NCBI RefSeq assembly: GCF_916049665.1
Contig: NZ_CAJZIE010000001.1
Location: forward strand, 1,223-65,222
Length of the DNA stretch: 64,000 nt
From: an uncultured Rothia sp.
GTDB lineage: Bacteria > Actinomycetota > Actinomycetes > Actinomycetales > Micrococcaceae
Direction of reading: 5' to 3'
Both the position numbers and the translations under genes were made by a program. Numbering within the stretch: the stretch's first letter is position 1; every line of letters starts with the position of its first letter. Under the pieces are notes generated by a model, which had not been told where the DNA came from, did not search any database, and saw only the letters and a program-made list of their open reading frames with translations. This document shows positions 3,617-20,796 of this stretch, in pieces.

Positions 3617-3661
3617 GCGCCCCGGTGCGAGTCGTGTGCTCGTGTCGGGGCGCTGTTTTTG
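3617..3661 (+). terminator. rho-independent terminator after the MFS gene
   Basis: GC-rich hairpin 'gcgccccggtgcgagtcgtgtgctcgtgtcggggcgc' followed by TTTTT. Confidence 0.6.
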
Positions 3662-4088: not shown

Positions 4089-5084
4089 ATGTTTAGGTAC
4101 ATCCTCCAGCGATCGCTGACGTACCTCGTCATGGTCTTTATTACGACCACGATGGGTTACTTTGCAGCGGTTACTGCCCTGAAGCCTGCCCTCTTGGAGC
4201 AGGAAAAGGTTCCGAAGCCTAGCCCCGAGCAGGTGAACCGTAACTTCGCATCCCTGGGTCTCGATCCCGAAATGAACCCCTGGGACCGCTACGTTCAGTG
4301 GCTGACCAATGTGGTCACCAAGTTCGATTGGGGCCGTAGCCCCAACGGCGCGTACATTAACCAGGAATTTGGCCAGCGCGTGTGGGTTTCTACCCGCCTG
4401 CTGCTGGTGGCTACCATTCTCTCGATTGTGATTGGTATTGCCCTGGGTGTGTACTCGGCAGCTCGCCAGTACAAGTTCTCTGACCGTGTTATCACCGGTT
4501 ACTCCTACCTGGTCTACATCATCCCCGCTCCCGTTGCTTACTTCGTGGTGCAGCAGGGCGCGACCACTATCAACAACATCGCCGTTGCTAATGGTGGAGA
4601 GAAGATTTTCTATGTGACCGGTATTTCGACTCCGGGTCTGACCGGATTCTGGGAAATCACCATGGATATGGCGGCGCACTACGTCGTGCCGACCTTCTGT
4701 ATGACCATCTTCGGTTGGGCTGGTTACCAGATTGCACAGCGTCAGTACCTGCTCGATAACGTGAACGCTGACTTCGTGCGTACCGCTCGTGCTAAGGGCT
4801 TGACCCGTAACCAGGCGATTACTCGCCACGCACTGCGCGTCTCCTTCATCCCCGTGGCACAGTCCATCGCGTACCAGATTCCGATGATTTTTGCGGGTGC
4901 ATTCTTCGCCGAGACCGTCTTTGCATGGCCCGGTATCGGTAAGTGGTCGATTGACTCCATTTCCGCGCAGGACGTGAACGCTGCGACCGTGACCCTCGCG
5001 TACGGTTCTGCACTGTTCGCTGTCGGTGCGATCATCGCTGATATCGCTACCACCATCGTCGACCCCCGAGTGAGGATCTCATGA
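4089..5084 (+). CDS. oppB: ABC transporter permease, OppB/DppB family
   Basis: 331 aa with 6 predicted TM segments and an N-terminal 'ILQRSLTYLVMVF' typical of OppB/DppB. RBS 'aaggagggga' upstream. Start of a translationally coupled operon with the next two genes. Confidence 0.85.
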   Translation: MFRYILQRSLTYLVMVFITTTMGYFAAVTALKPALLEQEKVPKPSPEQVNRNFASLGLDPEMNPWDRYVQWLTNVVTKFDWGRSPNGAYINQEFGQRVWVSTRLLLVATILSIVIGIALGVYSAARQYKFSDRVITGYSYLVYIIPAPVAYFVVQQGATTINNIAVANGGEKIFYVTGISTPGLTGFWEITMDMAAHYVVPTFCMTIFGWAGYQIAQRQYLLDNVNADFVRTARAKGLTRNQAITRHALRVSFIPVAQSIAYQIPMIFAGAFFAETVFAWPGIGKWSIDSISAQDVNAATVTLAYGSALFAVGAIIADIATTIVDPRVRIS

Positions 5085-6082
5085 GTCAGGTAACTGCAAC
5101 TTCCTCCGTACCGGTGGTACAGGAGAACGGTGACTTCAAGGTCATCAACAAGAGCGTTATTATTCTGCGCCGCTTCCTGCGTAACAAGGCTGCAGTCTTC
5201 GGTCTGTGCGTGTTCATCGGCATGGGTCTGTTCGGTCTGTTCGGTAAGTACCTGACCAAGTACAAGCCCAACGACATTGACTACATGGCGCTGGGTGAAG
5301 GCCCCTCGGCCGAGCACTGGTTCGGTACCACCATCGCGGGTAATGACGTGTTCGCCATGATGTCTGAGGCCGTCTGGACCTCTCTCCAGATTGGTGTGGT
5401 CGTCGGTTTGGCCACTGTGTTCATCTCCGCAGTTTACGGTTGTGTGATGGCGTACTTCGGTGGCTGGATTGACAAGATTATGCTGTTCATCCTCGAGACC
5501 CTGATCATGGTTCCCTCGCTGCTGATTCTGGCAATTCTGATTAACGGTCAGGTTGGTAAGCAGATTCAGAAGAGCGTCCCCACCTGGGTTCTGCTCTCTG
5601 CAGTGCTGATTGCCTTCGGCTGGATGGGTAGCGCCCGTGTTATTCGTGCAATGGCGCAGTCCCTCATCAACCGCGACTTCGTGAAGGCTGCACGCTACAT
5701 GGGTGTGCACCCCTTCAAGATTGTGATGCGCCACCTGGTTCCGAACATTGGCTCCCTGCTGGTTCTGAACTTCACCAGCGGCATCATGGGCGCTGTGCTC
5801 TCTGAGGTCGCTTACTCCTTCATCGGCATCGGTATTAAGTACCCCAACTACTCGCTGGGCTCGCTGATTTCGGATGCTTCGCAGCAGATTAACACCCTGC
5901 CGCACATGTTCTGGTTCCCGGTTCTGTTCTTCTTCCTGCTGGTTGGTCCGCTGGCCCTCATGAACGACGGTCTGCGTGACGCATTCGACCCGACTTCGAT
6001 GTCGGTCGGTAAGATCAAGAAGTCCAAGAAGAACGAGAAGGCAGAGGCACCCGCTGCCGCTGCAAAGGAGGCGAAGAACTAA
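5081..6082 (+). CDS. oppC: ABC transporter permease, OppC/DppC family
   Basis: Overlaps oppB by 4 nt (ATGA). Polytopic membrane protein with the ABC-transmembrane-domain region typical of OppC. Confidence 0.85.
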   Translation: MSQVTATSSVPVVQENGDFKVINKSVIILRRFLRNKAAVFGLCVFIGMGLFGLFGKYLTKYKPNDIDYMALGEGPSAEHWFGTTIAGNDVFAMMSEAVWTSLQIGVVVGLATVFISAVYGCVMAYFGGWIDKIMLFILETLIMVPSLLILAILINGQVGKQIQKSVPTWVLLSAVLIAFGWMGSARVIRAMAQSLINRDFVKAARYMGVHPFKIVMRHLVPNIGSLLVLNFTSGIMGAVLSEVAYSFIGIGIKYPNYSLGSLISDASQQINTLPHMFWFPVLFFFLLVGPLALMNDGLRDAFDPTSMSVGKIKKSKKNEKAEAPAAAAKEAKN

Positions 6083-8175
6083 TGAGTACCTCTCCCGTTC
6101 TGAGCGTTAAGGACCTCAACGTCCGCTTCAATACTGAGAATGGCGTCGTGCACGCTGTTCGCGGTGTGAACTTTGACCTGTACCCCGGTAAGACCCTGGG
6201 TATTGTGGGTGAGTCCGGTTCCGGTAAGTCCGTTGCCTCCATGGCAATCATGGGTCTGCACCCGACTACCGCTGACATCACCGGTTCGGTCAAGTACAAC
6301 GGCACCGAGCTGCTGGGCTTGAGCGATAAGGAAATGTGCGCATACCGCGGCAAGGAGATCTCTATGATCTTCCAGGATCCGCTGTCCTCTCTGACCCCCG
6401 TGTACACCATTGGTGATCAGATTGCTGAGGTGCTCAAGGTCCACAACAAGGGCATGAGCAAGCAGGCTATCAAGGACCGTTCCATCGAACTGATGCGTAT
6501 GGTGGGTATTCCCTCGCCGGCTGACCGCCTGCGTTCCTTCCCGCACGAGTTCTCCGGTGGTATGCGTCAGCGCATCATGATCGCTATGGCGATTGCGAAT
6601 GACCCCCGCGTGCTCATCGCCGATGAGCCCACCACCGCACTGGATGTGACCATTCAGGCGCAGGTGCTGGAGGTTATGCAGAAGGCTCAGGATGAGACCG
6701 GCGCAGCGACCATCATGATTACCCACGACCTCGGTGTTGTGGCTGGTATGGCTGACGACATTCTGGTGATGTACGCCGGTAAGCCGGTGGAGATTGCGAA
6801 GGCAGAAGACCTGTACAAGCATCCCTCCCACCCGTACACCATCGGTCTGCTGGGTGCGGTCCCGCGTGTGGACCGTTCCGAGAAGGTCTCCCTGGTACCC
6901 ATCGAGGGTACCCCTCCGAACCTGATTAACCCGGTGACCGCGTGCTCCTTCCGCCCGCGTTGCCCCATCGCTAAAAGCGGTGGCCAGTGCTGCCAGGACT
7001 CCAACGGCGAGCCCGATCTGCAGCTGCTGGAAGGCGTTGGCGAGGGCCACTACTCCTCCTGCACCATCTCTCAGGAGCTGGTCGGTAAGACCGCAGACGA
7101 GCTGTACCCGGTTCCGGAACCCCCGGTATCGAAGTACGACGGCATCCCGCGTGAGGAGCGTGCCCCCGTCCTGGAGGTCCGCAACGTCAAGAAGCACTTC
7201 CCGCTCATGAAGGGTGCGCTGATTAAGCGCCGCGTGGGCACTGTGAAGGCTGTGAACGGCGTGTCCTTCGACATTCGCGAGGGCGAGTGCTTCTCCATCG
7301 TGGGTGAGTCCGGTTGTGGTAAGACCACCACCCTGCTGGAAATCATGGAGTTCAACAAGAACACCGACGGTGAGATTCTGATTAACGGAACCTCCACCAA
7401 GGACGGCAAGTCCGCAGGTGAGATTCTTGAGCTGCGTAAGAACCAGCAGATGGTGTTCCAGGACCCCACCGGTGCTCTGGATCCGCGCTTCACCGTTTAC
7501 GAGGTGCTGGCTGAGCCCCTGGAAAACCAGGGCATGAACAAGGCAGACATCAAGAAGCGCGTCATCGAGCTGATGCACATTGTGGGTCTGCAGCCCGACC
7601 ACGTGAACCGCTTCCCGAACCAGTTCTCTGGCGGTCAGCGTCAGCGTATCGGTATTGCTCGTGCGCTTGCCGTTAACCCTAAGCTCGTGGTTCTGGATGA
7701 GCCGGTGTCCGCACTGGACGTGTCCGTCCAGGCTGGTGTGATCAACCTGCTGGAGGAGTTGCGTGCAAACCTGGGCCTGAGCTACCTGATGGTTGCTCAC
7801 GACCTCGCGGTGATTCGCCACGCATCCGACCGCGTTGCAGTGATGTACCTGGGTCGTATTGTTGAGATCGGTGACGTCGACCAGGTGTTCGACAACCCGA
7901 TTCACCCGTACACCCGTGCACTGCTCTCGGCGATTCCGGTTCCGGATCCCGAGGTTGAGGCAAAGCGCCACCGCATTATGCTTGAGGGCGACCTGCCCAC
8001 TCCGGTGAACGCGCCTAAGGGTTGTGGCTTCTCGAGCCGTTGCCCGGTCTTCAAGCTGCTGCCTGAGGACAAGAAGCGTCGTTGCCTGGAGGAGATGCCG
8101 GAACTGACCCCCGTTGAGGGCCAGGATCACGGTTATGCTTGCTACTACCCTGAGGCTGAGGCCGCTACGGTGTAG
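6082..8175 (+). CDS. oppD: ABC transporter ATP-binding protein with two fused ATPase domains (OppD-OppF fusion)
   Basis: Two Walker A motifs ('GESGSGKS' and 'GESGCGKT'), two 'LSGGQRQR/FSGGMRQR' signature motifs, and Opp-type C-terminal Cys-containing extensions. Overlaps the oppC stop (TAATG). Confidence 0.9.
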   Translation: MSTSPVLSVKDLNVRFNTENGVVHAVRGVNFDLYPGKTLGIVGESGSGKSVASMAIMGLHPTTADITGSVKYNGTELLGLSDKEMCAYRGKEISMIFQDPLSSLTPVYTIGDQIAEVLKVHNKGMSKQAIKDRSIELMRMVGIPSPADRLRSFPHEFSGGMRQRIMIAMAIANDPRVLIADEPTTALDVTIQAQVLEVMQKAQDETGAATIMITHDLGVVAGMADDILVMYAGKPVEIAKAEDLYKHPSHPYTIGLLGAVPRVDRSEKVSLVPIEGTPPNLINPVTACSFRPRCPIAKSGGQCCQDSNGEPDLQLLEGVGEGHYSSCTISQELVGKTADELYPVPEPPVSKYDGIPREERAPVLEVRNVKKHFPLMKGALIKRRVGTVKAVNGVSFDIREGECFSIVGESGCGKTTTLLEIMEFNKNTDGEILINGTSTKDGKSAGEILELRKNQQMVFQDPTGALDPRFTVYEVLAEPLENQGMNKADIKKRVIELMHIVGLQPDHVNRFPNQFSGGQRQRIGIARALAVNPKLVVLDEPVSALDVSVQAGVINLLEELRANLGLSYLMVAHDLAVIRHASDRVAVMYLGRIVEIGDVDQVFDNPIHPYTRALLSAIPVPDPEVEAKRHRIMLEGDLPTPVNAPKGCGFSSRCPVFKLLPEDKKRRCLEEMPELTPVEGQDHGYACYYPEAEAATV

Positions 8176-8207
8176 CTCTAGAGTCGGCTGAATAAGTCGC
8201 ATGTGTG

Positions 8208-8251
8208 CCGAGGGGCGAATATTCGTTGAATATTCGCCCCTCGGGTTTTTT
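8208..8251 (+). terminator. rho-independent terminator after oppD
   Basis: Hairpin 'ccgaggggcgaatattcgttgaatattcgcccctcgg' followed by TTTTTT. Confidence 0.7.
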
Positions 8252-8604
8252 ATGCCCGGTATTGGTGGGCTGTACGTTGTTCGAGATTGTCACCTAGTGA
8301 GACGGTGCGAGCCGCAGAATGTGGCGCTAGGCACTGAAACCACCAAGAAAACAGGAAAAACTGCACTGACTAGGCGTAACCTTTCTCACCATTCAAGATA
8401 TGAATATTTATGGAAGAGCTTTCCTGCTGGCAGTAAGCCATAATTAAGCCTGTGGGTGCGCCGCTAGGGGCGTACCTCAAGGAACACATTCATAGACCGG
8501 CACTAATTCATCGCTCACCGCACCCTATTGCGGCGCATGAGCAGGGAATCCTTGACGCTTTCCTGCAGGATTATTGAGGGTCAAACGTATAAGAGGACAC
8601 TCTC

Positions 8605-10305
8605 ATGGAGAAGAATTTCATCCTGAACCGTCGTACCGTTCTCGGTGGCGCTGCAGCACTGGGTACCGTGGGCGTACTGGCTGCGTGCGGCTCGTCCAAG
8701 GACTCCAAGGCAACCACCAAGGGTGCAACCGTGGGCACCGATGCCAAGGAGCTTTATGACCTTGGCGAGGCCGCTGTTTCTGAGCTGAAGGATGGCGGCA
8801 CTCTGCGCCTGGCTGTTCCGGGTATTGGTCCGGACTTCAACCTTTTCAGCGCGGACGGCAACTCCCTGTACACCCAGACCGCTATGAGCCCCGTGGCTTA
8901 CGCAGGCCTGTGGCAGGGTGACCCCCTGGGTAAGCGCACTCTGGCTCCCGAGTTTGCGAAGAGCTTCGATGTCGCCGAAGAAAACGGTCTGCCCGTCGTC
9001 TCCATTGAGCTGAACCCCCAGGCTAAGTTCAACGATGGTACCCCCATCGACTACAAGGCTCTGCAGGCTACCTGGAACATCCTCAAGAGCACCGATGGTG
9101 ACTACAAGGTCGGAAGCAGCGGCATCTACAGCAGCATTGCTTCCGTGGATCGCGACGGTGATGACTTCAAGGTGAAGGTAACCTTCTCCGCACCTTACTA
9201 CCCGCTGAATACCCTCTTCGCTGGCATTGTGCACCCGGCTCTGCTGGACAAGGAACTCTTCAACACTGGTTTCGTTGACAAGCCGCACCCCGAGTACTGG
9301 GTTGGCCCCTTCACCATTGCTGAAGGTGGTTGGAACTCGACCGAGAAGACCCTGACCCTGACCCGCAACGACAAGTGGTGGGGCGAGAAGCCCGTTCTGG
9401 AGCGCATTGTCTTCCGTCAGATGGATCCCGCTGCTGAGCGCGCGGCATTCAAGAACGATGAGCTTGATGCGATTGGTGCTACCACCGCTTCCGCATACAA
9501 GGAGCTCAAGGACGTTGCTAACATCGAGATCCGCCGAGGCTCTCGCCTGTTCTCCGGTGGCGTGACCATGAACCCCGCCCGCATGCAGGATGTTGCTCTG
9601 CGCCGCGCTGTGGTTACTGGTCTGAACCGTGAGGCTCTCGCCAAGGTTCGTTTCCAGGGCCTGGATTACGAAGAGAAGCTTCCCAACTCGATGATTCACA
9701 TGCCCTTCAACGAGTACTACCAGGACACCTACCCGACCCCGAACAACGATGCTGCTGCAGCATCCAAGATTCTGGAAGATGCAGGCTACACCAAGAACGG
9801 TGAGTTCTACGAGAAGGACGGCAAGCAGGCTGCCTTCAAGTTCTCCATCTTCGGTGAGGATCCCACCTCCAAGGCTGTCGGTCAGACCCTGGTTCAGCAG
9901 CTGAAGTCCGTAGGTATTAATGCTGAGCTCGACTCCCGTGCTGTTAGCGAGTTTAACAAGACCATGGCCTCCAAGGACTACGACGCAACCTCCTCCGGTT
10001 TCGCTCCGAGCTCCCCGGATGCTACCGAGGCTACCGAGCAGTTCTACATGCGCCGTAAGCCTGAGGAAGCCGGTTCCGATGAGATCAATGAGATGATCGC
10101 AAAGATGAAGCTCATTGCTGACGACAAGGAACGCAACCAGGCTTGCAATGAGATCGAGAAGAAGCACCTGGCTGAGTTCGCAGTGCTGATTCCGCTCATG
10201 AACGGCCCCGAGTACAAGTTCGTGAAGAAGGGTCTGCGCAACTACGGCGTGTCCCTCTTCCAGGGCACCGGCATTCACTGGGAGAAGGTTGGTTGGGCTA
10301 AGTAA
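8605..10305 (+). CDS. ABC transporter substrate-binding lipoprotein, family 5 (peptide/nickel/opine type), paralog 1
   Basis: RBS 'aagagga'. Signal 'NRRTVLGGAAALGTVGVLAACGSS' is a twin-Arg-like lipobox. Conserved family-5 motifs 'KFNDGTPI' and 'NDKWWGEKP'. Confidence 0.85.
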   Translation: MEKNFILNRRTVLGGAAALGTVGVLAACGSSKDSKATTKGATVGTDAKELYDLGEAAVSELKDGGTLRLAVPGIGPDFNLFSADGNSLYTQTAMSPVAYAGLWQGDPLGKRTLAPEFAKSFDVAEENGLPVVSIELNPQAKFNDGTPIDYKALQATWNILKSTDGDYKVGSSGIYSSIASVDRDGDDFKVKVTFSAPYYPLNTLFAGIVHPALLDKELFNTGFVDKPHPEYWVGPFTIAEGGWNSTEKTLTLTRNDKWWGEKPVLERIVFRQMDPAAERAAFKNDELDAIGATTASAYKELKDVANIEIRRGSRLFSGGVTMNPARMQDVALRRAVVTGLNREALAKVRFQGLDYEEKLPNSMIHMPFNEYYQDTYPTPNNDAAAASKILEDAGYTKNGEFYEKDGKQAAFKFSIFGEDPTSKAVGQTLVQQLKSVGINAELDSRAVSEFNKTMASKDYDATSSGFAPSSPDATEATEQFYMRRKPEEAGSDEINEMIAKMKLIADDKERNQACNEIEKKHLAEFAVLIPLMNGPEYKFVKKGLRNYGVSLFQGTGIHWEKVGWAK

Positions 10306-10352
10306 GTCCTCATCCCTTCACCTCCTAGGTGAATAGCCTAGAGCTATTGAAA

Positions 10353-10387
10353 GTGTCCACCCGGATTATCCGGGTGGACACTTTTTG
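10353..10387 (+). terminator. rho-independent terminator after SBP paralog 1
   Basis: Hairpin 'gtgtccacccggattatccgggtggacac' followed by TTTTT. Confidence 0.7.
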
Positions 10388-10671
10388 CATTTCTGGAGGG
10401 GGCTTTGGGTGCTTTTGTGTACCTATGTGGGGGAGTGATGGTATAGCTATCCGGCAAAATCCGAAAAATTCGCGCAAAAACAGGGTATTCATAGTATGAA
10501 TATTCAAAAAATACGATAAATATTAAGAAATATTGTGAAAATGCTTGGTTTTCGCTCTCGAGGTGCGCTACAGTGAAGTCATACAAAGTTATGCAGTGCT
10601 CTGCATAAATAATCATTACTTCGGGAATACGGGGTACACCCGCCCGCACAAGACAGAAGGAAACCACTCCC

Positions 10672-12402
10672 ATGACCGCCAACACCGCATACACCGCGAG
10701 TAGCCACGAAGCGACCAAGAACAGCTTCAGCCGCCGCGCGCTCATTGGCGGCACCGCGGCTCTGGGAGCTGTAGGTCTGCTCAGCGCCTGCGGCAACGGC
10801 AGCGCAAGCTCTGAAAAGACCAAGGCCGCCGGCGCCGGTGCCAATATCGAAGACCTCTACAACATCAACGCTCAGGACGTGAACAGCCTGAAGAAGGGCG
10901 GCACTCTGCGCCTGCCCGCCGGATCCATCGGCCCGAACTTTAACTTCTACACCCAGAGCGGTAACACCAGCGATAACGTCAACGTTATGAGCACCATCAG
11001 CCAGGCTGGCATGTGGAACCTCGACTTTGACGGTACCTACAAGCTGAACACCGACTTCGCTGTCTCCTTCGAGCACAGCAAGAAGGATGACAAGATTCAG
11101 GTTGCCGTCAAGCTCAACCCCAAGGCTGTCTTCAATGATGGCACCCCCATCACCTACAAGGCGCTCCAGTCCACCTGGAACATCTTCAAGAGCCTGGATA
11201 ACGGCTACAACATTGTCACCAGCGGCATCTACGAATTCGTCGAATCCGTAGAAAAGGGCGAAGACGACTACAGTGCAATCGTCACCTTCTCCAAGCCCTT
11301 CTACCCGCTGCAGAGCCTCTTCTCTGAGATTCTGCACCCCGCACTGGAAGACGTCGAGCTCTTCAACAACGGCTTCGTGGATGCGCCCCACCCCGAGTAC
11401 TGGGCCGGCCCCTTCACCCTGGCGGATAAGGGCTGGGACTCCACCGCGAAGACCTTCAGTGTTGTACCCAACGATAAGTGGTGGGGCACCAAGCCCCTGC
11501 TGGACAAGATTGTCTTTACCCAGATGGAGTCCAGCGCTGCACGTGCCGCGTTCAAGAATGATGAAATTGACGCTATCGGTGCAAGCACCTCCTCCACCTA
11601 TGCCGAGGTGAAGAACATTGCGGGTACCGAACTGCGTAAGGGTACCCGCCTCTACGCCGGTGGCCTGGATATTAATCCCCGTCGCGTCAAGGATGCTGCC
11701 CTGCGTAAGGCAATCTTCGTCGGCACCAACCGTGAAGCACTGGCAAAGATTCAGTTCCAGGGTCTGCCCTATGAGGAGGCTATTCCCGGTTCGATGATTC
11801 ACATGCCCTTCTCGCCCTACTACCAGGATTCTTACCCGACCCCGAATAACAGCGTTTCGGAGGCGCAGAAGATTCTGGAGGCCGCCGGCTACACCAAGAA
11901 CGGCGACTACTACGAGAAGGACGGCACGAAGGCTGGCTGCGCAGTGGTGGTCTTCGGTGACGATCCGACCAACAAGGGTAAGGCTCAGACCTTCACTCAG
12001 CAGATGAAGGATGTCGGTATCGAGATCCGGATTGATCAGCACGCCGATAGCGAGTTCGCCACCATTCTGGGCAACTGGGACTACGATATTTCCTTCAGCG
12101 GCTACTCGGTCTCTGCTGACGCGACCGAGAGTACCAAGCAGTTCTACTACTCCGAGAACAACGAAGGTATCGGCAGCAAGGAAATCGATGCCCTCATCGA
12201 CGCCATGACCCTCATTGAGGATGACAAGGAACGTAACCTCGCCTGCAACGAGATTGAGAAGAAGCACATGGCGGAGTTCGCCTTCCTGGGCACCATTACG
12301 AACGGTCCTGACTTTGTGATGGTCAAGAAGACTCTGGCTAACTACGGTCCGCGCCTGTACAAGTCGATGGACTGGGCTGCTGTGGGCTGGATGAACTCCT
12401 AA
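10672..12402 (+). CDS. ABC transporter substrate-binding lipoprotein, family 5, paralog 2
   Basis: RBS 'gaaggaaa'. Signal 'SRRALIGGTAALGAVGLLSACG'. Shares 'KAVFNDGTPI', 'PNDKWWG' and 'GYTKNGDYYEKDGT' motifs with its neighbours. Confidence 0.85.
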   Translation: MTANTAYTASSHEATKNSFSRRALIGGTAALGAVGLLSACGNGSASSEKTKAAGAGANIEDLYNINAQDVNSLKKGGTLRLPAGSIGPNFNFYTQSGNTSDNVNVMSTISQAGMWNLDFDGTYKLNTDFAVSFEHSKKDDKIQVAVKLNPKAVFNDGTPITYKALQSTWNIFKSLDNGYNIVTSGIYEFVESVEKGEDDYSAIVTFSKPFYPLQSLFSEILHPALEDVELFNNGFVDAPHPEYWAGPFTLADKGWDSTAKTFSVVPNDKWWGTKPLLDKIVFTQMESSAARAAFKNDEIDAIGASTSSTYAEVKNIAGTELRKGTRLYAGGLDINPRRVKDAALRKAIFVGTNREALAKIQFQGLPYEEAIPGSMIHMPFSPYYQDSYPTPNNSVSEAQKILEAAGYTKNGDYYEKDGTKAGCAVVVFGDDPTNKGKAQTFTQQMKDVGIEIRIDQHADSEFATILGNWDYDISFSGYSVSADATESTKQFYYSENNEGIGSKEIDALIDAMTLIEDDKERNLACNEIEKKHMAEFAFLGTITNGPDFVMVKKTLANYGPRLYKSMDWAAVGWMNS

Positions 12403-12810: not shown

Positions 12811-14511
12811 ATGAGCCCCCACCCCATCCCCTCCCTCTCCGGATTCAACCCGATCATGAGCCGCCGCGTACTGTTCGGCGGCGCAACCGCCGTCGCTGCT
12901 GCCGGCGTACTGAGCGCTTGTGGCTCCTCGTCCTCCAAGACCGAGCACAAGGCAAGCGAAACCCCGTTCTATGAAATCAACGAGCAGGATGCCTCGAAGC
13001 TCAAGCAGGGCGGTACCCTGAACCTGAGCACTTACTCCCTTGGTCCGGACTTCAACCGCTTCTCCCAGAACGGCTCGAGCACCTCCGTCTCCGAAACCAT
13101 GGGCGTTATCGCCGGTGCCGGCATCTGGCGCAGCACCTTCAAGGGCGAAGATGAGCTCGACCCCAACTACTGCCTCGGCTTCGAAGCTAAGGAAGTAGAC
13201 GGCAAGATCACCGCAGAGGTTCGTCTGAACCCCAAGGCAGTCTTCAACGACGGCACCCCCATCGACATCGATGCACTCAAGGCAACCTGGCAGATCCAGC
13301 GTGACCCCGACGGTGAATACAAGATTGCCGCAGCAGGTATCTACGAGTACATCGAAAGCGTTGAAGCTATCGATGGCGACCGCTACCACGCACGCGTTGT
13401 TTTCAAGACTGCGCACAACCCCGTCAAGGGTCTGCTCTTCGGCGGAATCCTGCACCCGGCGATGCTCGACGTAAACCTCTTCAATGAAGGCTTCGTGGAC
13501 AACCCCCACCCCGAGCTCGGTTGCGGCCCCTTCACCCTGGCACCCAACGGCTGGAACTCCTCCGAGAAGACCTTCACTGCTGTGCCCAACGACAAGTGGT
13601 GGGGTGAGAAGCCCAAGCTGGACCGCATCGTCGTGCGTGAAATGGCAGACGCTGCAGCTCGCGCCGCCTACAAGAACGGCGAGCTGGACGTCGTGGAATC
13701 ACGTACCCTCAGCGCCTACAACGAGATGAAGGACGTTGCAAACTCTGAAATCCGCCGCGGTCGCCGCCTCTTCGCCGGTGGTATGAACCTGAACGCACAG
13801 CACATCACCGATGTTGCCGTGCGTAAGGCAATCTTCCTGGGTATCGATCGCGGTGCTCTGGCAAAGATTCGCTTCCAGGGTCTGCCCTACGAAGAAGAAG
13901 TTCCCGGCTCGATGCTTCTGTTGGGTTCCTCCCAGTACTACCGCGACAACTACCCGGCACGTAACCCGGAGGAAGCACGCAAGGTCCTGGAGAAGGCAGG
14001 CTACACCAAGTCCGGCGACTTCTACGCGAAGGACGGCAAGACCATCACCTTGAAGCTGACCACCTTCGGTGATGACGCCACCACCAAGGGCCAGGCACAG
14101 ACCTTCATCCAGAGCATGAAGGAAATCGGCATTAACTTCGAGCTCGATTCGCGTGCACAGTCTGAATTCTCGAAGGTTGTTGGTAACCGCGAGTACGACG
14201 TAAGCATTTCGGGCTTCGGCGTGACCTCCGAGCCGACCAGTGCAGCCGAGTACTTCTACCACTCCAAGAACTGGAACGGCGTCGGCACCCCCGAAATCGA
14301 CGCTATGGTCGACGAGATGGTCACCATCCTCGATGACGCTAAGCGCGCCGAGAAGTGCAACGAAATTGAGAAGAAGCACATGAGCGAGGTTTGCCTCTTC
14401 ATCCCCTTCCTCAATGGCCCGGACTTCAAGGCATGCCGCCCGAAGCTCGCTAACTACGGTGCGTTCCTCTTCAAGACCACCGACTGGTCTACCGTCGGCT
14501 GGATGGCATAA
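12811..14511 (+). CDS. ABC transporter substrate-binding lipoprotein, family 5, paralog 3
   Basis: Strong SD 'aaggag' 6 nt before the ATG at 12811. Lipobox 'MSRRVLFGGATAVAAAGVLSACG' begins 15 codons in. Same conserved motifs as the other paralogs. Confidence 0.85.
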   Translation: MSPHPIPSLSGFNPIMSRRVLFGGATAVAAAGVLSACGSSSSKTEHKASETPFYEINEQDASKLKQGGTLNLSTYSLGPDFNRFSQNGSSTSVSETMGVIAGAGIWRSTFKGEDELDPNYCLGFEAKEVDGKITAEVRLNPKAVFNDGTPIDIDALKATWQIQRDPDGEYKIAAAGIYEYIESVEAIDGDRYHARVVFKTAHNPVKGLLFGGILHPAMLDVNLFNEGFVDNPHPELGCGPFTLAPNGWNSSEKTFTAVPNDKWWGEKPKLDRIVVREMADAAARAAYKNGELDVVESRTLSAYNEMKDVANSEIRRGRRLFAGGMNLNAQHITDVAVRKAIFLGIDRGALAKIRFQGLPYEEEVPGSMLLLGSSQYYRDNYPARNPEEARKVLEKAGYTKSGDFYAKDGKTITLKLTTFGDDATTKGQAQTFIQSMKEIGINFELDSRAQSEFSKVVGNREYDVSISGFGVTSEPTSAAEYFYHSKNWNGVGTPEIDAMVDEMVTILDDAKRAEKCNEIEKKHMSEVCLFIPFLNGPDFKACRPKLANYGAFLFKTTDWSTVGWMA

Positions 14512-14523
14512 GCCGCAGTTTTA

Positions 14524-14580
14524 AGCTCCCTGCCCCCTATACGTTTTCGCAGTGTCGTATAGGGGTGGGGAGCTTTTTCT
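14524..14580 (+). terminator. rho-independent terminator after SBP paralog 3
   Basis: Hairpin 'agctccctgccccctatacg...cgtataggggtggggagct' followed by TTTTT. Confidence 0.65.
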
Positions 14581-14840
14581 TGTGGAGGGTTCAGTGCGCT
14601 TTAGTTGCCCCGACGCTGTGCTTGTAACTTGTAACGACTCTCAAAGTACCGGGTGTGACGCGCTCGCGCGCCAATGCTACATAATATTTCATTTTTTAGT
14701 TTTCGCACGCGGCTTCCGCATGATGATGCGGTTTCAGGCGCTGAACCCGTGATTTTTAGACGGTGTATAGTTCTTCCACGGATTGGACTGTGGTCTGCGT
14801 CGCTTCTTTTGGGGGTATACTGTGTTTCAACCACAAACAA

Positions 14841-14856
14841 TGTGGGGGCTCTCACA
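14841..14856. promoter_or_regulatory. CRP/GlxR-like palindrome TGTGG-N6-TCACA upstream of SBP paralog 4
   Basis: 'TGTGGgggctcTCACA' matches the Crp family consensus TGTGA-N6-TCACA. It lies ~100 bp upstream of the start codon. Confidence 0.4.
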
Positions 14857-14954
14857 AAGGTGATGGGCGGGAGCTTCGGCGCTCCCGAAAAATCAGCGCA
14901 CAACACGGTGCGCTTATCGAATAGCACCCGAGCCCTCCGGCATGAGGAGAATAC

Positions 14955-16664
14955 ATGACTCATCTACGTATTAATCGCCGTACCCTGCTGACCGGCACCG
15001 TTGCCCTGGGTACCGTCGGCCTGCTCGCTGCATGCGGCGGCGGCTCTGACAAGAAGATCAGCGGTAAGGCTGCATCAAGCACCGAGGAAATCGTCAAGAA
15101 CCTCGAAATCAACAAGCAGGACCGCTCCTCCCTCAAGCAGGGTGGCGAGTTCCGCGGTAGCGTCTCCGCAGTCGGCCCGAACTTCAACATTCTGACTCAG
15201 AGCGGCTACACCACCGAGAACCTCACCGCATTCGGTGGCGCCTGCAACATCCCCTCCGCTATCGGCTTCACCTCCCTAAGCCCTGCTGGCGAATACAGCC
15301 TCAACGACGACTATGTCAGCGACTACAAGGCAGAGACCGTTGGCGGCGTGCAGACCATCACCTTCAAGCTCAACTCTAAGGCTGTCTTCAATGACGGCAC
15401 CCCCGTTGACGTTGAGGCAATCCGCGCCGCGTGGACCGTCTACCGCAACCCTGATGACGGCTACAACGTTATCGCCGCTCCCTTCTGGCAGCAGGTAGCA
15501 TCCATCGACCCCGTGGATGGCGACAAGACCCGCGTCAAGATCGTCATGTCCAAGCCCCTGTACCCCGCTGAGACCCTCGGCCTGCTCGGTCTGCACCCCG
15601 CACTGACCGACAAGGAGCTCTTCAATAACGGCTTCGTGAACAAACCCATGGATCAGTACTGGTCCGGCCCCTTCAAGATTGGCGAGTGGAACTCTTCGGC
15701 TAAGACCCTCACCCTCGTGCCCAACGACAAGTGGTGGGGCGAGAAGCCTCTGCTGGATCGCATCATCTGGCGCGAAATGGGCGACGAAGCAGAGCGCGCA
15801 GCGTTCAAGAACGGCGAGCTGGACAGCATCGGCTTTGCTGGCCTGGCAACCTACAACGCCGTCAAGGGTCAGCCCGGTGTTCAGATTCGCTCCGGCCAGA
15901 GCGTTGGCGTGATCAACCTGCAGTTCAACCCGACCCGCGTGACCGACACCGCCCTGCGCCGTGCAGTCTTCGCCGCGGTTGACCGCTCCCAGCTGGCTAA
16001 GGTCAAGTTCGGCCAGATCAACTGGGAAGAGCCGCTGACCGGCTCCATGATCGCTATGCCCTTCCAGAAGGGCTACCAGAACAACATGCCGTCCAACCCC
16101 GGCGCCGAGGCTGCGGCAAAGATCCTGGAAGCAGCAGGCTACTCCAAGAATGGCGACTACTACGCCAAGGACGGCAAGACTGCAGGCTTCTCCATCACCT
16201 ACTTCGGTTCGGATGCAACCTCCCTGGCTCAGTTCCAGAACCTCGAGCAGCAGCTCAAGGCAGCAGGTATTAAGCTCGAGCAGGACAACCAGCCGCAGTC
16301 CCAGTTCAACTCCGTGATGGGCTCTAAGCAGTACGACTGCGCCTTCTCCGGCTGGGGTATTGGTGCTGACCCCGCAGACAGTGTTCAGTACTTCTACACC
16401 AGCGAAATCAACGAAGGTGTGGGCGATCCCGAGCTGGATAAGTTCATCGCGTCTATTTACGAGAAGGAATCCCACGAGGAGCAGTTGAAGATGGCTGCTG
16501 AGGCTGAGAAGCAGCACATGGAGAAGGTCGCTATTTACTTCCCCTACGCTAACGGCCCCAGCTACGCAGCTGTGAAGGAGAAGCTGGCTAACTATGGTCC
16601 TTCCCTCTTCGCAACCAGCTACACCGACCCCAAGCGCTGGGTCAATGTGGGTTGGCAGAACTAA
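14955..16664 (+). CDS. ABC transporter substrate-binding lipoprotein, family 5, paralog 4
   Basis: RBS 'gaggag'. Signal 'NRRTLLTGTVALGTVGLLAACGGG' is near-identical to those of paralogs 5 and 6. Confidence 0.85.
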   Translation: MTHLRINRRTLLTGTVALGTVGLLAACGGGSDKKISGKAASSTEEIVKNLEINKQDRSSLKQGGEFRGSVSAVGPNFNILTQSGYTTENLTAFGGACNIPSAIGFTSLSPAGEYSLNDDYVSDYKAETVGGVQTITFKLNSKAVFNDGTPVDVEAIRAAWTVYRNPDDGYNVIAAPFWQQVASIDPVDGDKTRVKIVMSKPLYPAETLGLLGLHPALTDKELFNNGFVNKPMDQYWSGPFKIGEWNSSAKTLTLVPNDKWWGEKPLLDRIIWREMGDEAERAAFKNGELDSIGFAGLATYNAVKGQPGVQIRSGQSVGVINLQFNPTRVTDTALRRAVFAAVDRSQLAKVKFGQINWEEPLTGSMIAMPFQKGYQNNMPSNPGAEAAAKILEAAGYSKNGDYYAKDGKTAGFSITYFGSDATSLAQFQNLEQQLKAAGIKLEQDNQPQSQFNSVMGSKQYDCAFSGWGIGADPADSVQYFYTSEINEGVGDPELDKFIASIYEKESHEEQLKMAAEAEKQHMEKVAIYFPYANGPSYAAVKEKLANYGPSLFATSYTDPKRWVNVGWQN

Positions 16665-16914
16665 AGCCACAGGTTAATTTTCTGGATTCCTATTCGGTAG
16701 TTTCTGAATTTTCGGAGGCGCCGGTTCAGGTCTCCAGAAGGGTAAAGTCCCGCGGTATTCCGCCTCAGTGGCGGGGTACTGCGGGGCTTTTCTGTGTTTT
16801 TGATGGGGGGTTTGTGGTGGGGTGGTTTCGGGGATTGGCTGAAATATTTTCCCTAAAACGGTGAACTAGGTCATAGTGCGTGGGAAATGTGTGTATACTA
16901 ATCTCAATGCAAAA

Positions 16915-16930
16915 TGTGCGTGCTGTCACA
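16915..16930. promoter_or_regulatory. CRP/GlxR-like palindrome TGTGC-N6-TCACA upstream of SBP paralog 5
   Basis: 'TGTGCgtgctgTCACA' lies ~65 bp upstream of the start, followed by the same 'TCACAAAGGTG' string seen at paralog 4. Confidence 0.4.
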
Positions 16931-16995
16931 AAGGTGTGCGGGTTGTGTTCCCCCGCGTACAGCAAAGCAGCATCCCACCTAACTGAGGAAAACTA

Positions 16996-18702
16996 ATGAC
17001 CACTTTCACCCTCAACCGTCGTACCCTGCTCACCGGCACCGTTGCCCTGGGTACCGTCGGCCTGCTCGCAGCCTGCGGCGGCAACTCCTCCAAGAACGAA
17101 ACCAGCGCTCTCTCCGCCGGCGACGACCTCTCCAAGGCAGTCTCCTACAACGAGAAGGACCGCTCCGCCCTCAAGGACGGCGGCGAGCTGCGACTGAGCG
17201 CAGACGGCATTGGCCCGAACTTCAACATCCTCAACACCAACGGCTACACCGCCGGTAACCTGAATATTCAGGCGGCTATCAACTCTGCCTTCACCGGCGG
17301 CTTCTACGCTGACTTCCGCGGCGAGTCGCACATGAACAAGGACTACGTCACCGAATACAAGGCGCAGACCGTTGACGGCGTGCAGACCGTGACCTTCAAG
17401 ATCAACCCCAAGGCAGCCTTCAACGACGGTACCCCCATCGACGTGAACGCCGTCAAGAGCTACCAGACCATCTACACCGCCGCGGCATCCGGTTCGGACT
17501 ACCAGATCACCCCCTCGCCCATCTGGGAACAGGTCGCAAGCGTCGAGGCTGTGGACGGCGATACCCGCCACGTGAAGGTCACCATGTCCAAGCCCTGGTA
17601 CCCCATCGAAGGCAGCTTCACCTCGTTCCTGCACCCGGCATTCGCCGACCCCAAGTTCTTCAACGACGGCCTGAACGACAAGCCCCTCGACCAGTACTGG
17701 GCAGGTCCCTTCAAGGTCGGCGAGTGGAACTCCTCCTCCAAGGTGCTCACCGTCGTCCGCAACGAGAAGTGGTGGGGCACCAAGCCCGCTCTTGAGCGCA
17801 TCACCTGGCGTGAAATGAGCTCCCAGGCAGAGCAGGCAGCTTACAAGAACGGCGAAATCGACTACGTGGATGCCAGCACCCTCAGCTCCTACAACGAGCT
17901 CTCCGGCGTGGCAAACACCGACATTCGCAAGGGTAGCGCTCTCAGCGTGGGCAACTACGAAATCAACCCCGAAAAGGTGCCCCTGCCCGTCCGCCGCGCA
18001 TTCGTTGCAGCCCTCAACCGTGAGCAGCTGCAGAAGCTGCGCTACGAGAAGCTCGGCTGGAAGGAAACCCTGCCCGGCTCCATGTGCATGCTGCCCATGC
18101 AGGAAGGCTACCAGGACAACTACCCGACCAAGCTCGGCAAGGACGTCGCTACCAAGATCCTTGAGGACGCAGGCTACACCAAGTCCGGTGACTACTACAC
18201 CAAGGACGGCGCTAAGGTCTCCTACCCGGTCATCACCTTCGGTAGCGACCCGGTTGTCAGCTCCACCGCGCAGTTCCTCGTCCAGCAGATGAAGGAAATC
18301 GGCGTTGAACTGACCATCGAGAACCACGGTGCCTCTGAAATGTCGAGCATCATCTCCTCGAAGAACTTCGCGATTAAGACCGGTGGCTACGGCATCACCA
18401 CCTCCCCGGTGGATGCGGCGAACTACTTCTACATCTCCGAGACCAACAACGGTCACGGTAAGGATCTGGACTCGCTGGCAGCAACCATGATGTCCACCGA
18501 GGACCCGAAGGAACAGCTCAAGATCATGAACGAGCTGGAGAAGCGCCACCTGGACGAGGTCGCCATCTACGTGCCCACCCACAACGGCCCGAACTTCAAG
18601 GCGTGCCGTAAGGGCCTGGCGAACTACGGCCCCATGCTCTTCGGCCTGCCCTACTACAACCCGAACGTATGGATCAACGTCGGTTGGGAGAAGCAAAACT
18701 AA
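16996..18702 (+). CDS. ABC transporter substrate-binding lipoprotein, family 5, paralog 5
   Basis: RBS 'gaggaaa'. Signal 'NRRTLLTGTVALGTVGLLAACGGN'. Confidence 0.85.
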   Translation: MTTFTLNRRTLLTGTVALGTVGLLAACGGNSSKNETSALSAGDDLSKAVSYNEKDRSALKDGGELRLSADGIGPNFNILNTNGYTAGNLNIQAAINSAFTGGFYADFRGESHMNKDYVTEYKAQTVDGVQTVTFKINPKAAFNDGTPIDVNAVKSYQTIYTAAASGSDYQITPSPIWEQVASVEAVDGDTRHVKVTMSKPWYPIEGSFTSFLHPAFADPKFFNDGLNDKPLDQYWAGPFKVGEWNSSSKVLTVVRNEKWWGTKPALERITWREMSSQAEQAAYKNGEIDYVDASTLSSYNELSGVANTDIRKGSALSVGNYEINPEKVPLPVRRAFVAALNREQLQKLRYEKLGWKETLPGSMCMLPMQEGYQDNYPTKLGKDVATKILEDAGYTKSGDYYTKDGAKVSYPVITFGSDPVVSSTAQFLVQQMKEIGVELTIENHGASEMSSIISSKNFAIKTGGYGITTSPVDAANYFYISETNNGHGKDLDSLAATMMSTEDPKEQLKIMNELEKRHLDEVAIYVPTHNGPNFKACRKGLANYGPMLFGLPYYNPNVWINVGWEKQN

Positions 18703-18951
18703 GCGTTGAGCACCGCTCACACACTCCATAAGGGGTAAAAGCGCTACAGCGGCGTGTTACAAAAGGATTAAAACCTTCTGTAGCACGCCGCTTTCCCGTT
18801 CCTAAGAGAGTCGCACGGATATACTTAAAACAAATGTGGGCATTCTGCCCGCAACCCCGGCAGAGACTGTCCTCCCGCCGGGTTGGAGTGTGGGTTACGC
18901 ACCGTTCGCGTACCGCCTCCACAACACTGCGAATACTCTAGGAGAAATTCC

Positions 18952-20655
18952 ATGAAGAGCATGTCTGTCTCTCGCCGTACCCTCCTGACCGGCACCGTTG
19001 CCCTCGGCACCGTTGGTCTACTGGCTGCCTGCGGCAGCTCGAAGGAAAAGGTTGGCGGTAGCGCCGCTAACAACGCTGAAGATATTCTGAAGAACCTTCA
19101 GGTCAACAAGCAGGACCGTTCCTCCCTCAAGCAGGGTGGCACCCTGACCCTCGCGGCTACCGCCCTGGGCCCCAACTTCAACCTGCAGACCCAGAGCGGC
19201 TACACCTCCAGCAACCTGGACGCTCTGGCACCCTGCAACATTCCCGCCGTGATGGGCTTCTACACCATGAGCCCCGAAGGCGAAGGTACCCTCAACCCCG
19301 AGTTCTGCACCGAGCACAAGACCGAGACCGTCGATGGCGTGCAGACCGCGACCTTCAAGATCAACCCCAAGGCTGCCTTCAACGACGGCACCCCCATGGA
19401 CGTGAACGCTGTTCGCGCCGTGTGGAAGGTCTACCGCGCAACCACCGACAACCCCTACCACATCACCGACAACACCATGTGGCAGCAGGTTGAGAGCATC
19501 GAGGCTGTGGACGGCGACAACTTCCACGTCAAGGTCACCATGAAGGCTCCGTACTACCCCTCCGAGGGTCTGTGCGCCTTCGCAATCCACCCCGCCCTGG
19601 AAGACGTCAACCTCTTCAACGAAGGCTTCGTTGACAAGCCCCTCGACCAGTACTGGGCAGGTCCCTTCAAGGTTGGCGAGTGGAACTCCTCCCAGAAGGT
19701 GCTCACCCTGGTCAAGAACGACAAGTGGTGGGGCGAGAAGCCGGTGCTGGACCGCATCATCTGGCGTCAGATGGACTCCGAAGCAATCCGTGCAAGCTTC
19801 AAGAACGGCGAACTGGACGCCTTCACCTTCGTTGGCGCAACCAGCTACAACGCTGTGAAGGGCCAGGCAGGCACCGAGATTCGCCAGAGCCAGAACACCA
19901 ACGTCAACATCATTCAGCTGAACCCCAAGCGCATCGAGGACCTGGCACTGCGCCGCGCAATCCTCGCTTCTGTGGACCGCGAGCAGATTGCTAAGGCATA
20001 CTTCTCGCAGCTCGGCTGGACCGAGCCGCTGCCCGGCTCCATCATCGCAATGCCGTTCCAGAAGGGCTACCAGAACAACTACGCTGGTGACACCGGTGCA
20101 CAGGCAGCTGGCAAGATTCTGGAGGCAGCAGGCTACTCCAAGTCCGGCGACTACTACGCTAAGGACGGCAAGGTTGCTGGCTTCGCCCTGACCTCCTTCG
20201 GTTCCGAGGCTGTCTACCAGGCGGTCTACCAGATTCTGGAGCAGCAGCTGAAGTCCGCAGGTATCCGCCTGAGCGCTGACAACCAGCCGCAGTCGAACTC
20301 CAACTCCGTGCTCGGCCAGAAGAGCTACGAAGCAATCTTCACCGGTTGGGGCGTTCTGCCCGACCTGGCTTCCTCGGCACCCTACTTCTTCACCACCGAG
20401 GTGTTCGGAGTCGGTGACCCCGAAGTTGATAAGCTCATCGAGAAGCTGCAGAACACCGAGAAGGAAGACGAGCGCATCAAGATCGCTAACGAGGCGGAGA
20501 AGCTCTACTACGAGAAGGTCGCAGTGTACCTGCCCTACGCAAACGGCCCGATGTACGCCGCTGTCAAGGCTAAGGTTGCGAACTACGGTCCGTCCCTGTT
20601 CAAGCAGAGCTACACCAGCGCTGACTACTGGGTCAACGTTGGCTGGCAGGAGTAG
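18952..20655 (+). CDS. ABC transporter substrate-binding lipoprotein, family 5, paralog 6 (track ORF starts at 18883; the RBS-supported start is 18952)
   Basis: RBS 'aggaga' precedes the ATG at 18952. Signal 'MKSMSVSRRTLLTGTVALGTVGLLAACGSS'. Confidence 0.85.
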   Translation: MKSMSVSRRTLLTGTVALGTVGLLAACGSSKEKVGGSAANNAEDILKNLQVNKQDRSSLKQGGTLTLAATALGPNFNLQTQSGYTSSNLDALAPCNIPAVMGFYTMSPEGEGTLNPEFCTEHKTETVDGVQTATFKINPKAAFNDGTPMDVNAVRAVWKVYRATTDNPYHITDNTMWQQVESIEAVDGDNFHVKVTMKAPYYPSEGLCAFAIHPALEDVNLFNEGFVDKPLDQYWAGPFKVGEWNSSQKVLTLVKNDKWWGEKPVLDRIIWRQMDSEAIRASFKNGELDAFTFVGATSYNAVKGQAGTEIRQSQNTNVNIIQLNPKRIEDLALRRAILASVDREQIAKAYFSQLGWTEPLPGSIIAMPFQKGYQNNYAGDTGAQAAGKILEAAGYSKSGDYYAKDGKVAGFALTSFGSEAVYQAVYQILEQQLKSAGIRLSADNQPQSNSNSVLGQKSYEAIFTGWGVLPDLASSAPYFFTTEVFGVGDPEVDKLIEKLQNTEKEDERIKIANEAEKLYYEKVAVYLPYANGPMYAAVKAKVANYGPSLFKQSYTSADYWVNVGWQE

Positions 20656-20697
20656 TACCGCTTACGGTAACGCTCTAGCCGTCCTGTAGGACTCGAA

Positions 20698-20746
20698 ATC
20701 CCGGGTACTCTCACGAGAGAGTGCCCGGGATTTTTTGTGCCCTTTA
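20698..20746 (+). terminator. rho-independent terminator closing the SBP array
   Basis: Hairpin 'cccgggtactctcacgagagagtgcccggg' followed by TTTTTT. Confidence 0.7.
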
Positions 20747-20796
20747 GCCGGATATGTAATTACAAAAAACGAGGGGAGCGCCACTCTAACTGGCTG

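Follow-up and report, generated by a model that had tools for sequence, protein, structure and literature searches.

One Opp-type translocator followed by six anciently duplicated substrate-binding lipoprotein genes in Rothia

That several OppA paralogs can serve one Opp machinery is already well known. In Streptococcus pneumoniae, the substrate-binding proteins (SBPs) AmiA, AliA and AliB serve one translocator, AmiCDEF, with different ligand ranges. In Escherichia coli, OppA and MppA share OppBCDF (PMC12136057), and in Borrelia burgdorferi the lipoproteins OppA1-5 are individually regulated, differ in peptide preference and use shared Opp machinery (PMC11732028). The OppABCD system of Mycobacterium tuberculosis (Rv1283c-Rv1280c; PDB 8J5Q-8J5U) has one operonic OppA, which binds glutathione and bradykinin and needs G109, N110, N230, D494 and F496 for binding (PMC2923189); an iron-sulfur (Fe-S) cluster is required in this transporter (PMC12136057). 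The present analysis concerns a 64,000-nucleotide stretch of a contig from an uncultured Rothia sp. (the window), whose proteins are 96-99% identical to those of Rothia mucilaginosa genomes and which we assign to that species. According to the list of open reading frames (ORFs) and to Pfam, it contains oppB, oppC and a fused oppD followed by six head-to-tail SBP genes on the plus strand, here called S1 to S6 (Table 1).

The Rothia locus resembles the M. tuberculosis system in gene order, in the fused OppD and in the four aligned Fe-S cysteines of that protein, but has six SBP genes, each with its own leader and terminator, in place of one operonic oppA. As in Borrelia, where three of the genes stand in tandem, there are several lipoprotein SBPs; Borrelia is a spirochete, however, its SBPs fall in another branch of family 5, plasmids encode two of its OppAs, it has two permease pairs, and its tandem genes precede the translocator genes, whereas all six in Rothia form one chromosomal array after them. 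Regulation and specificity are experimental results in Borrelia and are deduced from sequence in Rothia. The pneumococcal and E. coli systems have two or three SBPs, the extra ones usually encoded elsewhere, and no six-member tandem monocistronic array. In the same family, Micrococcaceae, Arthrobacter and Psychromicrobium have an orthologous oppBCDA (oppB 69-70%, oppD 66-71% and SBP 41-45% identity), which shares a CRP-like box upstream of oppB with Rothia but has a single SBP gene 2-63 nt past oppD without a terminator, in contrast to the six uncoupled genes of R. mucilaginosa. None of this runs counter to current understanding, and the likeness to Borrelia OppA1-5 and to AmiA/AliA/AliB drawn in an earlier note on this DNA is apt. 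New here are an actinobacterium with six receptor modules in tandem, each monocistronic, a clear series of copy numbers from one to six that goes along with uncoupling from the translocator genes, CRP/GlxR candidate boxes that only some of the modules carry, and cassette-like S1 alleles.

The membership of the six proteins is clear. All of them match PF00496 (SBP_bac_5) at 142-169 bits against a cutoff of 32.4 (E 3e-41 to 2e-49) and align as family-5 SBPs, with more than 100 residues invariant across the six; the picture of an Opp-type translocator with fused OppD and six family-5 lipoproteins in an actinobacterium, proposed in the earlier note, stands. The translocator genes are tightly packed, oppB and oppC overlapping by 4 nt and the first base of oppD being the last base of oppC. 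Beyond the array, the window was found to contain no further gene for an Opp permease, an Opp ATPase or a family-5 SBP, and the six SBP genes lie directly 3′ of its sole oppBCD. It is very probable that the locus encodes an importer of the Opp type whose six SBP modules have all been retained. Each of the six N-termini, as read from the sequence, carries an RR pair, a hydrophobic stretch and then a lipobox (LAAC in S1, S4, S5 and S6; LSAC in S2 and S3) with an invariant Cys-Gly, the pattern of a lipoprotein ([LVI][ASTVI][GAS]C). The twin-arginine label given earlier was not upheld, since an RR pair by itself is insufficient evidence of export by the twin-arginine (Tat) pathway and none of the six reaches the TIGR01409 cutoff of 16.7 bits (S1 16.4, S2 14.6, S6 9.6; no match for S3-S5); PF10518 likewise gave no match in the six. 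The S6 start is most likely ATG 18952 (567 amino acids, aa) and not the TTG at 18883 of the mechanical ORF, as indicated by a TAGGAG Shine-Dalgarno site, by alignment with the S4 and S5 N-termini and by public gene calls. The size range of the six is thereby 566-576 aa, which keeps the lower end of the earlier estimate (566-590 aa) and corrects the upper one. Public annotation of these SBPs gives the generic name ‘ABC transporter substrate-binding protein’ alone.

Family assignment points to M. tuberculosis. The match of OppD to Rv1281c (8J5Q chain D) spans residues 4-624 (E 1e-194) and aligns all four cysteines of the mycobacterial Fe-S domain, and the order oppB-oppC-oppD(fused)-oppA is the same. 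Searches run with S1, S2 and S4 (to which S3, S5 and S6 are 48-62% identical) found M. tuberculosis OppA (Rv1280c) over essentially the whole length, at E 1.5e-49, 4e-61 (end to end) and 1.5e-43, respectively, with about 28-30% identity; the next families, EppA, NikA and CntA, follow at E 1e-16 to 1e-22, that is, 20 to 40 orders weaker. In Foldseek, the AlphaFold model of S2 had M. tuberculosis OppA as its top four PDB matches (E 7.5e-42 to 2e-37, TM up to 0.76), including a crystal form with a bound endogenous oligopeptide, and the top 50 PDB matches were all family-5 SBPs at probability 1.00, which gives the S2 model, itself of moderate confidence, the large bilobed fold of cluster C. The NCBIfam equivalogs were not reached, NikA scoring 60-95 bits against a cutoff of 393, Opp5A_nikA 59-100 against 600, CntA 44-77 against 800, GsiB 42-54 against 594 and DppA 23-38 against 1005; the E. 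coli OppA equivalog also scored far under its cutoff, and the top model for oppB, Opp4B, remained under its own. By sequence the locus is of the actinobacterial OppBCD-OppA type represented by Rv1283c-Rv1280c, and because SBPs and translocator are both nearest to M. tuberculosis OppA and OppBCD, peptides are likely to be the substrate class, being the best supported one. The earlier statement that substrates are unknown across peptides, nickel, metallophores and heme is, given these matches, overstated.

Sequence comparison indicates that the duplications behind the six genes are old. The near-identical signal peptides of S4-S6 are real (S4 and S5 are identical over 22 aa, NRRTLLTGTVALGTVGLLAACG, and S6 is one residue off), but the recent serial duplication read from them earlier is contradicted by the proteins as a whole. 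Pairwise amino acid identity is 41-62% (50-54% within clade A, S1-S3; 48-62% within clade B, S4-S6; 41-44% between clades), and synonymous divergence (dS) between the mature parts is 0.68-1.17, near saturation. Whole clade A proteins are consequently not the more divergent ones that they had been taken for; the greater divergence is confined to their signal peptides. In the S4-S6 signals nonsynonymous divergence (dN) is about 0 with dS of 0.27-0.82, against dS of about 0.7-0.9 in the mature parts, which speaks for conservation at the protein level and not for recent copying. Recent duplication or gene conversion as the source of the identical signals is ruled out by these dS values; at most, a small 5′ conversion tract between S4 and S5 may have been involved, in a signal of no more than 22 codons.

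The phylogenetic distribution tells the same. Each of about 20 genomes of the R. mucilaginosa complex that cover the array has all six orthogroups, in unchanged order, and in a neighbour-joining tree each orthogroup has 100% bootstrap, with the topology ((S3,(S1,S2)),(S5,(S4,S6))). A sister lineage known from oral metagenomes (L072; G+C content 52.5%, oppB 89% identical) has four SBPs, among them specific orthologs of S2 (bootstrap 90), S4 (96) and S5 (100), and lineage L073 has three. The R. amarae group has two, a related uncultured Rothia (L042) at least four, R. nasimurium and R. nasisuis two, and Arthrobacter and Psychromicrobium one, giving a series from one (Arthrobacter) over two to four (other Rothia) to six (R. 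mucilaginosa). Independent duplications in R. nasimurium are hinted at in the tree (bootstrap 67-68), in conflict with the best BLAST hits and with a signature (N110 to Y, and TQxGYT) that place its second SBP with clade B. As for integrity, S3 is split over two ORF matches in Rothia sp. P3C3.S176 (locus L028), which may be a frameshift or an assembly error; this is the sole sign of disruption in about 20 arrays.

Along the same series, the SBP genes have been separated from the translocator genes. Between oppD and oppA, Arthrobacter and Psychromicrobium have the short gap given above, and this single operonic oppA is likely to be the ancestral state of the Rothia arrays. In R. nasimurium, the first SBP gene starts 42-44 nt past oppD, and a hairpin and about 320-350 nt come before the second. 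Between each SBP gene, the first included, and its upstream neighbour there are roughly 100-560 nt in the R. amarae group, in L072, in L073 and in R. mucilaginosa, and most of these spacers hold a strong hairpin. A copy series of 1, 2, 3-4 and 6 within one family, together with this uncoupling, makes an unusually clean evolutionary trajectory. In the window, the spacers before S1-S6 measure 429, 366, 408, 443, 331 and 249 nt, with a G+C fraction of 0.44-0.54 against about 0.56-0.62 in the genes, which bears out the earlier description of an AT-richer leader, here of 249-443 bp, and a Shine-Dalgarno site for each SBP gene. A strong hairpin (-30 to -41 kcal/mol in 55-nt windows) stands 3′ of all seven units, that is, oppBCD and the six SBP genes. 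Where the earlier note gave most genes their own intrinsic terminator, a hairpin is thus present after every unit; its T-tract is clear in five (after oppD, S1, S3, S4 and S6) and weak in two (after S2 and S5). Within the R. mucilaginosa complex (13-17 genomes), leader blocks, terminators included, are as conserved as coding sequence, and conserved -10-like elements are found at 14817, 16893 and 18819 (TATACT) and at 12613 (TACACT). No riboswitch, T-box or other known RNA matched Rfam in these leaders, searched at gathering scores over the whole window and at E <= 1 over 3500-21000. To judge from these features, the SBP genes seem each to form a transcription unit of their own.

Candidate regulatory sites differ among the leaders. 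A scan for CRP/GlxR-like boxes (TGTGA-N6-TCACA, at most two mismatches) found one ahead of oppB, S4 and S5 and none ahead of S1, S2, S3 and S6. The spacing of the oppB box from the start codon, 87-96 nt, is kept in four Rothia lineages (the window, and L072, L040 and L044, with counterparts at 905, 3514 and 3391, respectively). Over 29 leaders from nine lineages, 25 boxes were observed versus 3.9 +/- 1.9 in dinucleotide-preserving shuffles, and six versus 0.23 +/- 0.5 with at most one mismatch. The pattern TGTG-N8-CACA occurs twice in the window, both times at equivalent positions of the S4 and S5 leaders; its count is not above chance (2 vs 1.07 expected), and the placement alone is notable. 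The larger ORFs of the window were scanned and included no gene of the CRP family. Other conserved palindromes stand in the S1 and S2 leaders. The S2 leader contains a perfect 8-1-8 palindrome, TATTCATAGTATGAATA, at 10487-10503 and a further one, TTATGCAG-N4-CTGCATAA, at 10589-10608, and the S1 leader has a related ATTCAAGATATGAAT at 8392-8410; these are candidate gene-specific operators. Differences of this kind fit a non-uniform control that would be partly shared and partly gene-specific. An AATGTG element is present in six of the seven leaders, and AATGTG(G) was considered as a shared operator (7 vs 0.38 expected in the window leaders, for a motif chosen post hoc). It was rejected as such, because L072 and L073, the closest sister arrays, lack it in their leaders, and is reinterpreted as the left half of CRP/GlxR-like boxes.

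Purifying selection acts on all nine genes, with dN/dS of 0.03-0.08 in the translocator and 0.07-0.22 in the SBPs (S1 0.215, the highest of the nine; S5 0.158; S3 0.092), and there is no decay in any of the six SBP genes. Contact positions were taken from M. tuberculosis OppA residues that are predicted or supported by mutagenesis (PMC2923189), with the numbering checked by HMMER alignment. The equivalents of G109 and G490 are invariant in the six, and position 491 is always aromatic (F/Y/F/W/Y/W in S1-S6). Other positions vary among the paralogs, in the order S1-S6: 110 is N/N/S/Y/Y/Y, with N110 kept in S1 (major allele) and S2; 115 is Q/V/S/L/L/L; 229 is G/E/G/L/S/F; 232 is I/I/I/G/F/A; 494 is S/A/S/G/T/L; and 496 is D/D/E/D/S/D, S5 alone lacking the acidic residue found in five of six at the position of M. 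tuberculosis F496. Thus N110, D494 and F496, all needed in the mycobacterial protein, vary among the Rothia paralogs, the alignment of the D494/F496 region being shifted in them. Among the clearest cases, positions 110, 115, 232 and 496 outside S1 and S3 are fixed in 16 of 16 genomes, and the others have minor variants. Such stable, paralog-specific residues suggest that each SBP has its own pocket signature on a conserved scaffold; from sequence, the case for distinct specificities is reasonable, not proven.

Within the species, S1 is itself polymorphic. Its proteins fall into two allele classes, about 80% identical, in 12 and 4 of 16 genomes (the divergence is seen at loci L014, L019, L020 and L025). 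Against strain D1 (L014), oppBCD and the S1 leader are 97-99% identical in nucleotides, the S1 coding region 82-86% and the sequence beyond it 94-97%, and dS between the classes is 0.44 versus 0.087 in oppD for the same genome pair. This pattern suggests an allelic replacement about the size of the gene, with conserved flanks on both sides. Of 13 predicted contact positions, 6 differ between the classes, versus 87 of 482 others (p = 0.02), and this preference for contact positions points to ligand binding and not to surface epitopes. A weaker block of divergence covers 17589-18489 in S5 in a subset of genomes (L009, L014 and others) whose neighbouring genes are near-identical, with 88-92% nucleotide identity and with 89-93% protein identity versus 98-100%.

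These observations can be joined in one mechanism. We infer that the SBPs use one translocator in common, that they bind peptides with specificities that differ among them, and that their genes are transcribed independently and differentially under a CRP/GlxR-type regulator. An ancestral single operonic oppA would have been replaced by six anciently duplicated, membrane-anchored lipoproteins, each encoded in a leader-gene-terminator module. The oppBCD genes would form one transcript ending at the strong terminator that follows oppD, and each SBP gene would be transcribed mainly from its own predicted promoter in a leader of 250-440 nt. Control would be shared in part, through the CRP/GlxR-type boxes of oppB, S4 and S5, and gene-specific in part, through the other palindromes of S1 and S2. 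Outside the cell, the six lipoproteins would bind peptide subsets that differ from one to the next and pass them on to one common OppBC pore, with the fused, Fe-S-containing OppD as its source of power. Because different SBPs would feed the same pore, the uptake spectrum would be set by the SBPs that are made and, between strains, by the S1 allele carried (less so by that of S5). The full mechanism, in which the SBPs have one translocator in common, differ in peptide range and are regulated independently in part, is in our judgement probable, if well short of certain.

Several points weigh against it. Contact positions carry 3.23 distinct residues between paralogs versus 2.72 in the background, a difference that is not significant (p = 0.089), so that pocket divergence beyond the general divergence of the proteins is not demonstrated. 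The contact list rests on a homology model of 2010 and on mutagenesis, not on the structures of 2024, and M. tuberculosis N230 and G231 fall in a gap (are deleted) in all Rothia SBPs. The S2 model is of modest confidence (pLDDT 63, pTM 0.54) and was used at the level of the fold. Poor T-tracts after S2 and S5 would make read-through possible. A consensus scan of the leaders found no sigma-70-type promoter; actinobacterial promoters match the sigma-70 consensus poorly, and the empty scan is for that reason uninformative either way. The view is limited to 64 kb, and other Opp or Dpp translocators elsewhere might serve some of the SBPs. No publication on this Rothia locus was found in the literature.

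Other accounts of the array have to be considered. Some paralogs, clade B or S5 especially, might have shifted to nickel or metallophores, opine-like compounds, heme or oligosaccharides, still entering through OppBCD. The families that come next after M. tuberculosis OppA are indeed EppA (an EDTA binder), NikA, CntA and AccA, the change of N110 to Y in clade B is fixed in all genomes, and S5 combines the loss of the acidic residue at the F496 position with L to S at position 226. M. tuberculosis OppA is nevertheless far nearer to all six proteins than any binder of other ligands is. The NikA, CntA, GsiB and DppA equivalogs score 20-100 bits against cutoffs of 393-1005, no genes for metallophores, nickel enzymes or glycosidases flank the array, and the heme system next to it has a Peripla_BP_2 binding protein of its own; a mixed set of substrates is unlikely. 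It is likewise unlikely that the six share one broad peptide specificity and that the array adds receptor amount or buffers loss. Dosage amplifications are normally young and near-identical, whereas these paralogs, with near-saturated dS, are kept in every genome covering the array, have distinct sets of fixed residues at the predicted contacts and differ in the candidate operators of their leaders. What speaks for redundancy is that OppA-type pockets are promiscuous, binding peptide backbones (PMC11732028; PMC2923189), that divergence at the contact positions does not significantly exceed that of the remaining protein, and that AATGTG is common to six of seven leaders.

Co-transcription of the six SBP genes with oppBCD from the oppB promoter, with hairpins that are leaky or that stabilise or process the mRNA, would agree with the common strand of all genes, with the S2 and S5 hairpins that lack a good T-tract and with the empty promoter scan. 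We consider it improbable, given that canonical intrinsic terminators, with stems of roughly 17-20 bp and a T-run, make up five of the seven hairpins, that the leaders of 250-440 nt hold conserved -10-like elements and operator-like palindromes, and that the operonic gaps of 2-63 nt were given up specifically in this lineage. Least probable is a non-transport role at the cell surface for some paralogs, as adhesins, antigens, phage receptors or signalling lipoproteins comparable to mycobacterial LpqW. LpqW is a detectable relative (E 1e-13) and also a fold match, and S1, in which the allelic replacement spans the gene and dN/dS exceeds that of the other eight genes, behaves as an exposed protein under diversifying pressure might. 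The SBP genes stand tightly beside oppBCD in all Rothia lineages, however, the many invariant residues and dN/dS well under 1 in all six argue against this role, and so does the concentration of S1 class differences at predicted contacts.

Returning to a shared importer with SBPs of different peptide range, a further reading is that of a receptor-cassette system, in which each leader-SBP-terminator unit would be independently regulated and exchangeable, and whole alleles would be swapped between strains by homologous recombination in the conserved flanks, with a preference for changes at contact residues. We offer it tentatively, as a speculative extension. If true, S1 would be the clear case and S5 a weaker one, specificity of peptide uptake would be polymorphic within the R. 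mucilaginosa population, a CRP/GlxR-type regulator would gate part of the repertoire only, and the system could be tuned to host or dietary peptides, for example salivary proline-rich or gluten-derived ones. R. mucilaginosa ranks with the most abundant and most transcriptionally active bacteria of saliva and is also found in the airways; it probably draws on peptides as a major nutrient. If six receptors do serve one importer, this would be among the larger tandem OppA repertoires described, and the locus a tractable actinobacterial model for the widening of an importer's substrate range by receptor duplication.

Table 1. Coordinates of the features of the Rothia opp locus in the window
Feature	Coordinates	Strand	Remarks
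oppB upstream region	3573-4088	+	blocks conserved in 13 genomes
Candidate CRP/GlxR-like box, oppB	4002-4017	+	87 nt before ATG
oppB, permease, 331 aa	4089-5084	+	PF00528 E 1e-31; dN/dS 0.033
oppC, permease, 333 aa	5081-6082	+	PF12911 OppC_N and PF00528; dN/dS 0.083
oppD, fused double ATPase, 697 aa	6082-8175	+	two ABC_tran, each followed by oligo_HPY (two)
Predicted oppBCD terminator	8208-8244	+	perfect 17-bp hairpin, then T6; conserved in 17 genomes
S1, SBP lipoprotein, 566 aa	8605-10305	+	clade A; PF00496 E 5e-48
Predicted S1 terminator hairpin	10350-10384	+	perfect 17 bp, then T5
S2, SBP lipoprotein, 576 aa	10672-12402	+	clade A; PF00496 E 3e-41
Hairpin after S2	12417-12459	+	about -33 kcal/mol; T-tract weak
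S3, SBP lipoprotein, 566 aa	12811-14511	+	clade A; PF00496 E 4e-48
Hairpin after S3	14523-14575	+	then T5; conserved
Candidate CRP/GlxR-like box, S4 leader	14841-14856	+	TGTGGGGGCTCTCACA; 114 nt before ATG; downstream of TATACT 14817-14822
S4, SBP lipoprotein, 569 aa	14955-16664	+	clade B; PF00496 E 3e-49
Hairpin after S4	16745-16789	+	20 bp, then T-tract
Candidate CRP/GlxR-like box, S5 leader	16915-16930	+	TGTGCGTGCTGTCACA; 81 nt before ATG; downstream of TATACT 16893-16898
S5, SBP lipoprotein, 568 aa	16996-18702	+	clade B; PF00496 E 2e-44
Hairpin after S5	18748-18792	+	about -30 kcal/mol; T-tract weak
S6, SBP lipoprotein, 567 aa	18952-20655	+	clade B, nearest S4 (62%); PF00496 E 2e-49
Hairpin after S6, array end	20696-20733	+	17 bp, then T6

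The neighbours of the array are unrelated to it. On the 5′ side lie a TetR regulator and a DHA2-type pump of the major facilitator superfamily (MFS), and the region upstream of oppB contains the MFS terminator (3616-3653), a promoter-like TTGGTG-16-TATAAG at about 3955-3982 and an AGGAGG Shine-Dalgarno site. Another conserved hairpin that resembles a terminator, CCCCGGTATTCCGGGG at 3868-3883 followed by T7 (to 3890), stands some 200 nt past the MFS terminator and some 200 nt ahead of oppB, the intervening sequence being conserved; this region could be a small transcript or an attenuator, and it gave no Rfam match and no convincing small ORF. On the 3′ side follow a convergent ORF, EIIBCA of a phosphotransferase system, a P-type ATPase (24673-27294) and an HtaA/HmuTUV-type heme uptake cluster. 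The convergent ORF (347 aa, 20797-21840, minus strand) faces S6, has no Pfam match and is kept in position in other R. mucilaginosa contigs, where it has 341-343 aa. The heme acquisition cluster, of corynebacterial type, occupies 27473-33021 on the minus strand and encodes a 784-aa HtaA protein with three HtaA domains, whose gene adjoins Peripla_BP_2, FecCD and ABC ATPase genes. Farther along, the bacterial small signal recognition particle RNA (RF00169, 59 bits) lies at 45178-45274, just 3′ of dnaX, in the standard arrangement.

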